A DNA stretch of 203 bases from the NCBI RefSeq assembly GCF_003334335.1, contig NZ_QOWQ01000246.1. One strand, given 5' to 3'. Every line of letters starts with the position of its first letter. Position 1 is the stretch's first letter. The notes beneath the pieces were generated by a model. The model was given only the letters and a program-made list of their open reading frames with translations. It did not search any database and had not been told where the DNA came from. Below are positions 136 through 203 of the stretch, piece after piece. Position numbers and translations under genes: made by a program. Source of the stretch: Escherichia coli (GTDB lineage: Bacteria; Pseudomonadota; Gammaproteobacteria; Enterobacterales; Enterobacteriaceae).

Positions 136-203
136 ATGAATAAACAATACGAACTGGTTGTTAAAGGGATAAATAATTACCCGGATAAGATTACTGTTAC
201 TGT
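136..203 (+). CDS. ydfR: Small hypothetical protein, N-terminal 22 codons only (MNKQYELVVKGINNYPDKITVT...); probably a YdfR-like (DUF1327-type) protein of prophage lysis cassettes; 3' end lies beyond the window
   Basis: ATG at 136-138 is preceded by a well-spaced SD, and the frame is open to the window end. The segment is about 31% GC against about 56% upstream, with codon usage consistent with an AT-rich coding region. The gene symbol is assigned by synteny recall (in the K-12 Qin prophage the order is essQ-ydfR-rrrQ), not by recognising the sequence itself, so treat it as tentative. The N-terminus does not resemble the SAR endolysin of phage 21 or DLP12 (which begins MPPSLRK...). Confidence 0.6.
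   Translation, partial: MNKQYELVVKGINNYPDKITVT

Follow-up and report, generated by a model that had tools for sequence, protein, structure and literature searches.

A YdfR/DUF1327-family gene in a C-terminally replaced form at the holin-endolysin junction of an Escherichia coli prophage

Which gene stands between the holin and the endolysin of this E. coli prophage, and what might its product do? The window, which is the whole 203-nt stretch of DNA analyzed here, is a 100% match to a prophage of E. coli NCTC9112 (locus L001, where it occupies 8001-8203). Phage PhiR5_1, a viable phage whose listed host is E. coli C, is also 100% identical to it. Table 1 lists the features of the window and of the prophage DNA behind it.

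The gene behind the holin and its start

The complete upstream ORF encodes a holin of 71 aa (L001 7917-8132). It matched PHROG holin families with E values of 1.8e-40 and 2.4e-34, and RefSeq names the product "class II holin family protein". The holin start lies upstream of the window (L001 7917-7931) and reads MYQMEK, with two Met codons. A dual-start motif with two Met codons is a feature of phage 21 S. The antiholin form of phage 21 presumably has Lys at position 2, which the MYQMEK holin does not have there.

The first-pass annotation had placed a small ORF directly after the holin and expected a YdfR/DUF1327-type match for it. Both statements are borne out. The ATG at 136, 3 nt past the holin stop, opens an ORF of 211 codons in the NCTC9112 prophage (L001 8136-8771) and in PhiR5_1, and the 211-aa product matches Pfam DUF1327 (PF07041) with an E value of 1.8e-39 over aa 1-112 and profile positions 1-92 of 93. 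PHROGs 2091, 1085, 406, and 2735 also match the product, all of them labeled "unknown function". The near-identical NCBI representative, "YdfR family protein", differs at one of 211 residues and belongs to a 90%-identity cluster of 644 members. The small gene is a real, already catalogued YdfR/DUF1327 phage gene and not a chance ORF; as had been proposed, it belongs to a known conserved family rather than to a new system.

Table 1. Positions of the features in the window and in the downstream prophage region
Feature	Position	Strand	Basis
Class II (phage 21 S-type) holin, 3' end: last 43 codons and TAG stop (130-132)	window 1-132	+	frame 1 translation, PHROG, RefSeq
Shine-Dalgarno GGGGAGAG inside the last holin codons, for the downstream gene; core GGAG at 124-127, 8 nt before the ATG	window 122-129	+	sequence
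Spacer ACG, 3 nt, from holin stop to ATG	window 133-135	+	sequence
DUF1327/YdfR gene, first 22 codons plus 2 nt, reading MNKQYELVVKGINNYPDKITVT to the window end	window 136-203	+	translation, Pfam PF07041
Convergent 86-codon gene, phrog_2572, 516 nt past the window end	L001 8719-8979	-	ORF reading, PHROG
SAR-type lysozyme, 177 aa, with an Ala/Gly-rich N-terminal segment typical of SAR endolysins	L001 9091-9624		
Small ORF, 60 aa, between lysozyme and Rz	L001 9781-9963		
Small ORF, 43 aa, strongly hydrophobic, resembling a single-pass membrane peptide	L001 9978-10109		
Rz with embedded lipoprotein ORF Rz1 (lipobox LVVSAC), then terminase	L001 10121-10579 (Rz)		

A Kyte-Doolittle profile of the 211-aa protein gave neither a transmembrane (TM) segment nor a signal peptide. 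The highest 19-residue mean was 1.05, the GRAVY value was -0.48, and the pI was 5.2 overall and 4.6 for the N-terminal domain (N-domain). With no hydrophobic segment and an acidic pI, the product is therefore predicted to be a soluble cytoplasmic protein. The earlier description of the N-terminus as neither a SAR segment nor a lysozyme was correct, and DUF1327 is the only Pfam domain found. An endolysin N-terminus was ruled out by this sole Pfam match, by the lack of a SAR segment and by the presence of the true lysozyme as a separate downstream ORF. A membrane antiholin was ruled out by the lack of a TM segment. The outcomes that the first-pass annotation had named as speaking against its view are absent: the product has no endolysin domain, and the ORF extends well past the window and has conserved homologues. 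A defence-system identity was dropped after PADLOC and NCBIfam gave no match for the 211-aa ORF, the long form of the protein or the convergent ORFs of 86 and 233 aa described below; PADLOC also gave no match for the 60-aa and 43-aa ORFs. The PDB, searched by sequence, gave no solved relative of the 211-aa protein, the sole match being a chance coiled coil (GCN4, E value 0.36).

Two further expectations fared less well. An ORF of about 100 codons had been predicted; the one found here has 211, and only short alleles have the predicted size (K-12, 103 aa; BP-4795, 114 aa; mEp460, 104 aa). An endolysin and Rz/Rz1 had been expected downstream. Both are present, but the endolysin is not directly next, since the convergent 86-codon gene intervenes and the endolysin starts 319 nt after the 211-codon ORF. 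An endolysin directly behind DUF1327 does hold for the short alleles of K-12 Qin, Tritos, mEp460, BP-4795, and PhiR55_1.

The start of the gene abuts the holin, as had been noted, with its Shine-Dalgarno (SD) sequence within the last holin codons. The predicted anti-SD duplex at the DUF1327 start averaged -8.4 kcal/mol over related loci (78 of 78), compared with -3.3 for random 20-mers. This junction is conserved in K-12, mEp460, Tritos, BP-4795, and PhiR55_1, and the gap between holin stop and ATG was 3-4 nt at all 76 loci with upstream sequence among the best 80 of 295 IMG/VR matches. These best 80 matches have N-domains 85-100% identical to that of the window protein, and the sample favors intact copies. 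The abutting start and the holin-embedded SD suggest translational coupling. Folding of the junction RNA was no better than that of shuffled sequences (z 0.19), and Rfam gave no match at an E value below 0.1 across L001 7300-10700.

The endolysin start behind DUF1327 (…GATAAATATCC ATG) has no SD, with predicted duplex energies of +0.4 to +0.6 kcal/mol at 75 of 75 loci among the best 80 of 295 IMG/VR matches. The conserved SD-less start of the SAR endolysin reads ATAAATCCTGATAAATATCC ATG at L001 9071-9090, with equivalents in the 75 IMG/VR loci. In VT2-Sakai, R follows the holin directly (4 nt) and is served by the holin-embedded GGAG SD at -8.5 kcal/mol. Since the endolysin start is SD-less wherever DUF1327 is present, acquisition of the gene would therefore also alter endolysin translation, a possible cis effect. 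Could the gene act mainly as a cis-acting translational spacer, which takes over the holin SD so that the endolysin is uncoupled from the holin and its synthesis lowered or retimed? The difference between the two kinds of endolysin start argues for this, as does the ATGA stop/start overlap with R in K-12 and Tritos. The explanation is nevertheless highly improbable: it accounts neither for the conservation of the N-domain at the protein level, nor for the occurrence of the gene outside lysis cassettes, nor for gaps to R of 36-894 nt (among the best 80 of 295 IMG/VR matches).

A common N-terminal domain with exchangeable C-terminal parts

When 33 family members were aligned, the part shared by all ended at about residue 75. 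The signature YEL...V.VTV...(F/Y)YE.EA is present in the window protein, and Y5, Y53, E54, and A57 show little or no variation across 30 sequences. An AlphaFold2 model of aa 1-80, built on 30 sequences that included homologues at 26-36% identity, reached pLDDT 89 and pTM 0.77, with strands at 5-14, 18-27, and 37-43 and a helix at 50-74. The window itself codes for strand 1 and the first half of strand 2. A Foldseek search of AFDB50 with this model returned family members only and no informative outside fold relative; these members place the family in Enterobacterales, e.g., Hafnia, Yersinia, Providencia, Morganella, and Salmonella. The full-length model had a mean pLDDT of 53, with aa 72-123 below 50 and the remaining helices at about 40-58, and at this low confidence it is good for domain boundaries only. 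The linker (about aa 77-120) is predicted to be disordered, and the helical segments behind it may form a coiled coil.

Beyond ~75 residues the family is a mosaic of alternative linkers, a "DDIESRIEKLE" helix of variable length and a "KKRRDEQFAAFYDYC" segment. The long form (296-330 aa, phrog_1085) carries an extra C-terminal domain of ~130 residues that matched neither Pfam nor the PDB. Family members span 72-333 aa, and length is therefore hardly a defining feature, even though the 211 aa found here lie outside the ~100-115 aa of the type members. Among the best 80 of 295 IMG/VR matches, ORF lengths cluster at 110-116 and 296-330 aa, both classes stopping 36-63 nt before R, and intermediate forms of 162-268 aa have many endpoints and leave gaps of 233-894 nt to R. 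The N-domain was intact at 80 of these 80 loci, and a lysozyme lay downstream at all 75 that reached far enough.

The window allele follows the long form to about codon 192, then enters an inserted cassette, and it does not have the ~130-residue C-domain. At the DNA level, homology to the long form covers L001 8000-8711 (90.9% to locus L044); 8712-9067 is unrelated, and homology returns from 9068, just upstream of the endolysin; the unrelated 356 bp are a cassette that replaces the coding region of the long-form C-domain. The gene belongs to an ordinary, already annotated family; the window allele is a mosaic whose C-terminal part has been replaced.

The cassette carries the convergent 86-codon gene. 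Its 3' end overlaps the DUF1327 ORF by 53 nt, so that the inserted gene lies opposite the codons for the final residues of the 211-aa protein. Against Pfam the 86-aa product gave only DUF1823, a weak and non-significant match (E value 0.042), and a promoter scan at the threshold of the tool found no consensus sigma-70 site upstream of the gene. All seven distinct phages that carry this gene (eight database records) have it convergent to and overlapping the DUF1327 ORF in the holin-endolysin slot, some of them with an N-domain allele of only 54% identity. Within the DUF1327 coding region, past the stop of the 86-aa gene, the minus strand has two terminator-like hairpins (L001 8549-8576 and 8651-8668), which by their sequence could end the convergent transcript; the scan of the region found eight terminator-like sites against 3.2 +/- 1.8 expected. 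A Stx2a prophage of E. coli RM10466 (locus L002) has other convergent cargo in the same slot, a 233-codon ORF on the minus strand (4676-5377), which had no match in PHROG, NCBIfam or PADLOC and overlaps a DUF1327 ORF of 263 aa.

Is the 211-aa form, then, a decaying or neutral remnant, i.e., a truncated long form without current function that is carried along by recombination between the holin and endolysin flanks? PGAP/RefSeq calls the window gene a pseudogene "missing C-terminus" at L001 8136-8477, though the 211-codon frame stays open, and calls the 263-aa ORF of the Stx2a prophage a pseudogene as well (L002 4136-4384). We attribute the label on these open 211- and 263-codon ORFs to an only partial alignment to the reference protein. 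The loss of long-form homology at L001 8711, the replacement of the C-domain region and the many truncation and deletion endpoints among the best 80 IMG/VR matches also fit a remnant, and of 5426 complete E. coli genomes only 24 have the exact configuration of the window region, against 2894 with some portion of it. The intact N-domains in that sample, even though it favors intact copies, argue in the other direction. So do dN/dS values of about 0.2-0.4 over the first 74 codons in most pairs (residues 26-43 or so form a variable patch); judged from these codons, the N-domain is under purifying selection and the gene looks like an expressed one. Short alleles of viable phages keep the N-domain only, the 211-aa ORF is uninterrupted in the viable phage PhiR5_1 and annotated at full length as a CDS in its record, and the protein cluster is large. 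We consider a remnant to be quite unlikely.

Another locus (L106, 3310-4228) holds, in order, a holin, a 217-aa gene, a separate 75-aa DUF1327-like gene and a lysozyme. The 217-aa product matches positions 117-296 of the long-form profile, i.e., the helical part and the C-domain, and has no N-domain. With the two parts separated and in reversed order, this locus suggests that the N-domain and the C-part function jointly.

Distribution, lysis timing and convergent neighbors

The holin/DUF1327 junction was found in 2404 of 5426 complete E. coli genomes, and the gene is present in about half of them. Phage records with this holin numbered 343 (megablast) against 101 with the DUF1327 N-domain (tblastn); the gene is accessory, being absent from ~70% of the phage records with this holin. 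VT2-Sakai has a 99.1% identical holin, yet no DUF1327 gene.

These counts bear on the suggestion of the first-pass annotation that the gene is a lysis-timing modulator or antiholin-like factor. In such a role, a cytoplasmic regulator made together with the pinholin would bind the charged C-terminal tail of the holin, or the SAR endolysin, and delay or sharpen triggering. The constant position 3-4 nt behind a class II holin at 76 of 76 loci (among the best 80 of 295 IMG/VR matches), always with a SAR-type lysozyme after it, is compatible with a lysis-related role, and the SD embedded in the last holin codons points the same way. The presence of both long-form halves as separate genes in the same slot of L106 also fits, and the K-12 ydfR deletion is listed among the hits of an envelope-integrity screen in its supplementary lists. 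A fixed slot in E. coli lambdoid phages is, however, expected for any accessory gene that is spread by recombination between conserved flanks, and non-lysis genes such as ant also lie inside these cassettes, which makes position by itself poor evidence. The protein has no TM segment, most phages with the same holin do without it, distant homologues occur in tail and terminase-proximal modules, and overexpression in K-12 caused no growth defect (PMC13232886). The lysis-timing suggestion thus did not hold up well, and we regard it as unlikely.

A profile search of 1.84 billion representative proteins gave only 94 clusters, which include stand-alone homologues of 72-76 aa. The stand-alone homologues are at loci L011, L012, L015-L022, L103-L105, L108, and L110-L112. 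Nine of the 10 examined were outside the holin-endolysin slot and all were in late-gene orientation; their sites were between tail genes M and L, after L or I, in the gap between tail chaperone and tape measure genes, upstream of other holins, and in the gap between Rz and terminase. A convergent small gene (78-182 aa) follows at 9-41 nt behind 8 of 10 distinct stand-alone homologues, compared with 2 of ~59 other forward genes at the same loci (Fisher p 2e-7; counts made by manual reading of the gene tables). The partner family phrog_10490 is found with three diverged DUF1327 genes, each at a different position in the genome, and the pair thus moves as a unit. No homology to phrog_10490 or to one another was detectable for phrog_25324, phrog_18578, a 78/79-aa family and the E. 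coli ORFs of 86 and 233 aa, and hhalign between convergent partner families gave probabilities of 13.8% and 0.4%.

Several pairs have a GC-rich hairpin across the DUF1327 stop codon, e.g., AAGCGGCC-TGA-TGGCCGCTTTTTTT. The form AAGCGGCC TGA TGGCCGCTT, often followed by a T run, was seen across the stop of stand-alone DUF1327 genes at L011 1850-1880, L015 4910-4945, L103 4215-4247, and L110 1343-1374. By its sequence the hairpin looks like a bidirectional terminator. Since it covers the stop codon, the conserved C-terminal "KEAA" would therefore be encoded by one hairpin arm.

These pairs raise the question of whether DUF1327 is one half of a two-gene mobile cassette, in which the late DUF1327 protein neutralizes or serves a reverse gene presumably expressed in the lysogen, or handles sense/antisense RNA. 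The convergent genes behind the stand-alone homologues, the travel of phrog_10490 with DUF1327 to three genome positions, the overlapping 86-aa partner in seven of seven phages and the stop-codon hairpins all argue for it. On the other side, the partners fall into at least six families without detectable mutual homology, PADLOC gave no match for any component, and a convergent partner is missing behind most E. coli alleles (those of 103-116 and 296-330 aa). On balance such a cassette is rather improbable. A fuller version, in which the N-domain would be the constant half of a cassette made of forward gene, stop hairpin and variable reverse gene at many late-operon sites of Enterobacterales siphophages, and the late protein would handle its convergent neighbor, we regard as distinctly improbable, the partnerless E. 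coli alleles again counting against it. Here DUF1327 might neutralize the protein of its neighbor once the prophage itself turns lytic, or it might deal, via RNase E or RNA binding, with sense/antisense RNA from convergent transcription. The association with convergent partners is the one item possibly worth follow-up. Either the SD-less endolysin start or the pairing of DUF1327 with a convergent gene could show how accessory genes are accommodated in long late operons.

RNase E as a candidate target and comparison with known systems

The family had been said to have no assigned function. This stands for its PHROGs, which are unassigned, and not for K-12 YdfR, which has been reported to bind the catalytic half of RNase E and to co-purify RNA (PMC13232886, RNA Biology 2026). 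Codons 1-72 of ydfR came up three times in a two-hybrid screen that used RNase G as bait; residues 1-72 suffice for two-hybrid interaction with the RNase E 1-597 catalytic half, and full-length YdfR gave a signal with Rne1-597 only (PMC13232886). Strep-YdfR co-purified Rne1-598-FLAG together with DNase-resistant nucleic acid, with the authors' caution that a contaminant might be the RNA binder in the YdfR preparation; overproduction of YdfR in K-12 changed few transcripts and left growth unaffected (PMC13232886). The window protein is 45% identical to K-12 YdfR (E value 2e-20) over aa 1-74, which is the RNase E-interacting region. The name "DUF1327" appears in a single paper, which says nothing on function, and beyond PMC13232886 the ydfR literature, so far as its texts were accessible, adds only the match in the supplementary lists of the envelope-integrity screen.

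Our tentative preference is that RNase E or RNA binding by the N-domain is the most likely activity of the protein, rather than a part in lysis. For the 211-aa allele, RNase E or RNA binding is suggested by its homology to K-12 YdfR, and any effect on RNA decay would follow from the same homology. Several points count against the RNase E reading. The data come from a 45%-identical homologue and consist of overexpression, two-hybrid and pull-down experiments only; an acidic N-domain of pI 4.6 would be unusual for an RNA binder; and both the position behind the holin and the envelope-integrity listing of the ydfR deletion fit a lysis-related role too.

In the preferred reading, lambdoid phages carry the gene as an optional late gene, inserted at the precise point where holin and endolysin meet. 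There it takes over the SD at the 3' end of the holin coding sequence, and its product should therefore be made with the holin, late in infection. The functional core would be the ~75-residue N-domain, with three antiparallel strands and one long helix as modeled, and the short C-terminal tail would have arisen when the cassette with the convergent 86-codon gene replaced the long-form C-domain. Through its N-domain the protein may then bind host RNase E, at the N-terminal catalytic half, and possibly RNA as well, and in this way act on mRNA turnover during late expression. If this holds, a widespread late gene of Shiga-toxin and other lambdoid prophages targets the main RNA-decay enzyme of the host, and late transcripts would be controlled at a further, new level; in Stx phages these transcripts include those of stx and the lysis genes.

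The closest described relative is YdfR of the cryptic K-12 prophage Qin (b1555, 103 aa), which shares the Pfam family and the slot: the essQ holin, a 4-nt gap, ydfR and the rrrQ lysozyme. It differs in its short His/Lys-rich tail and in a stop codon that overlaps the endolysin start (ATGA), whereas the window protein, 211 aa long, includes a linker, helical segments and a tail whose coding DNA lies opposite a convergent gene, and its endolysin begins farther on. The short alleles BP-4795 ORF47 (114 aa), mEp460 gp55 (104 aa) and PhiR55_1 (116 aa), and the long form, have N-domains 52-86% identical to that of the window protein. These short and long lambdoid alleles share the holin-coupled start and the downstream SAR lysozyme with the window allele, which diverges from the 296-330-aa long form past about codon 192 and is missing its C-domain.

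Among phage proteins outside the family, T4 RIII is a small soluble cytoplasmic antiholin that acts on holin T. The DUF1327 protein resembles it as a small soluble protein that could conceivably bind a cytoplasmic segment of the holin. No sequence or fold relationship between the two was found, and DUF1327 is dispensable in most phages with the same holin and also occurs outside lysis cassettes. The phage proteins T7 gp0.7, T4 Srd, and phiKZ Dip reshape mRNA decay by acting on RNase E or the degradosome of the host, which makes them a parallel to the activity proposed here. All three belong to virulent phages, in which they serve early or middle functions, and they work chiefly through the C-terminal scaffold or by phosphorylation. 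To our knowledge DUF1327 has no homology to these three proteins; it differs from them as a late gene of temperate phages, with a homologue that binds the N-terminal half of RNase E.
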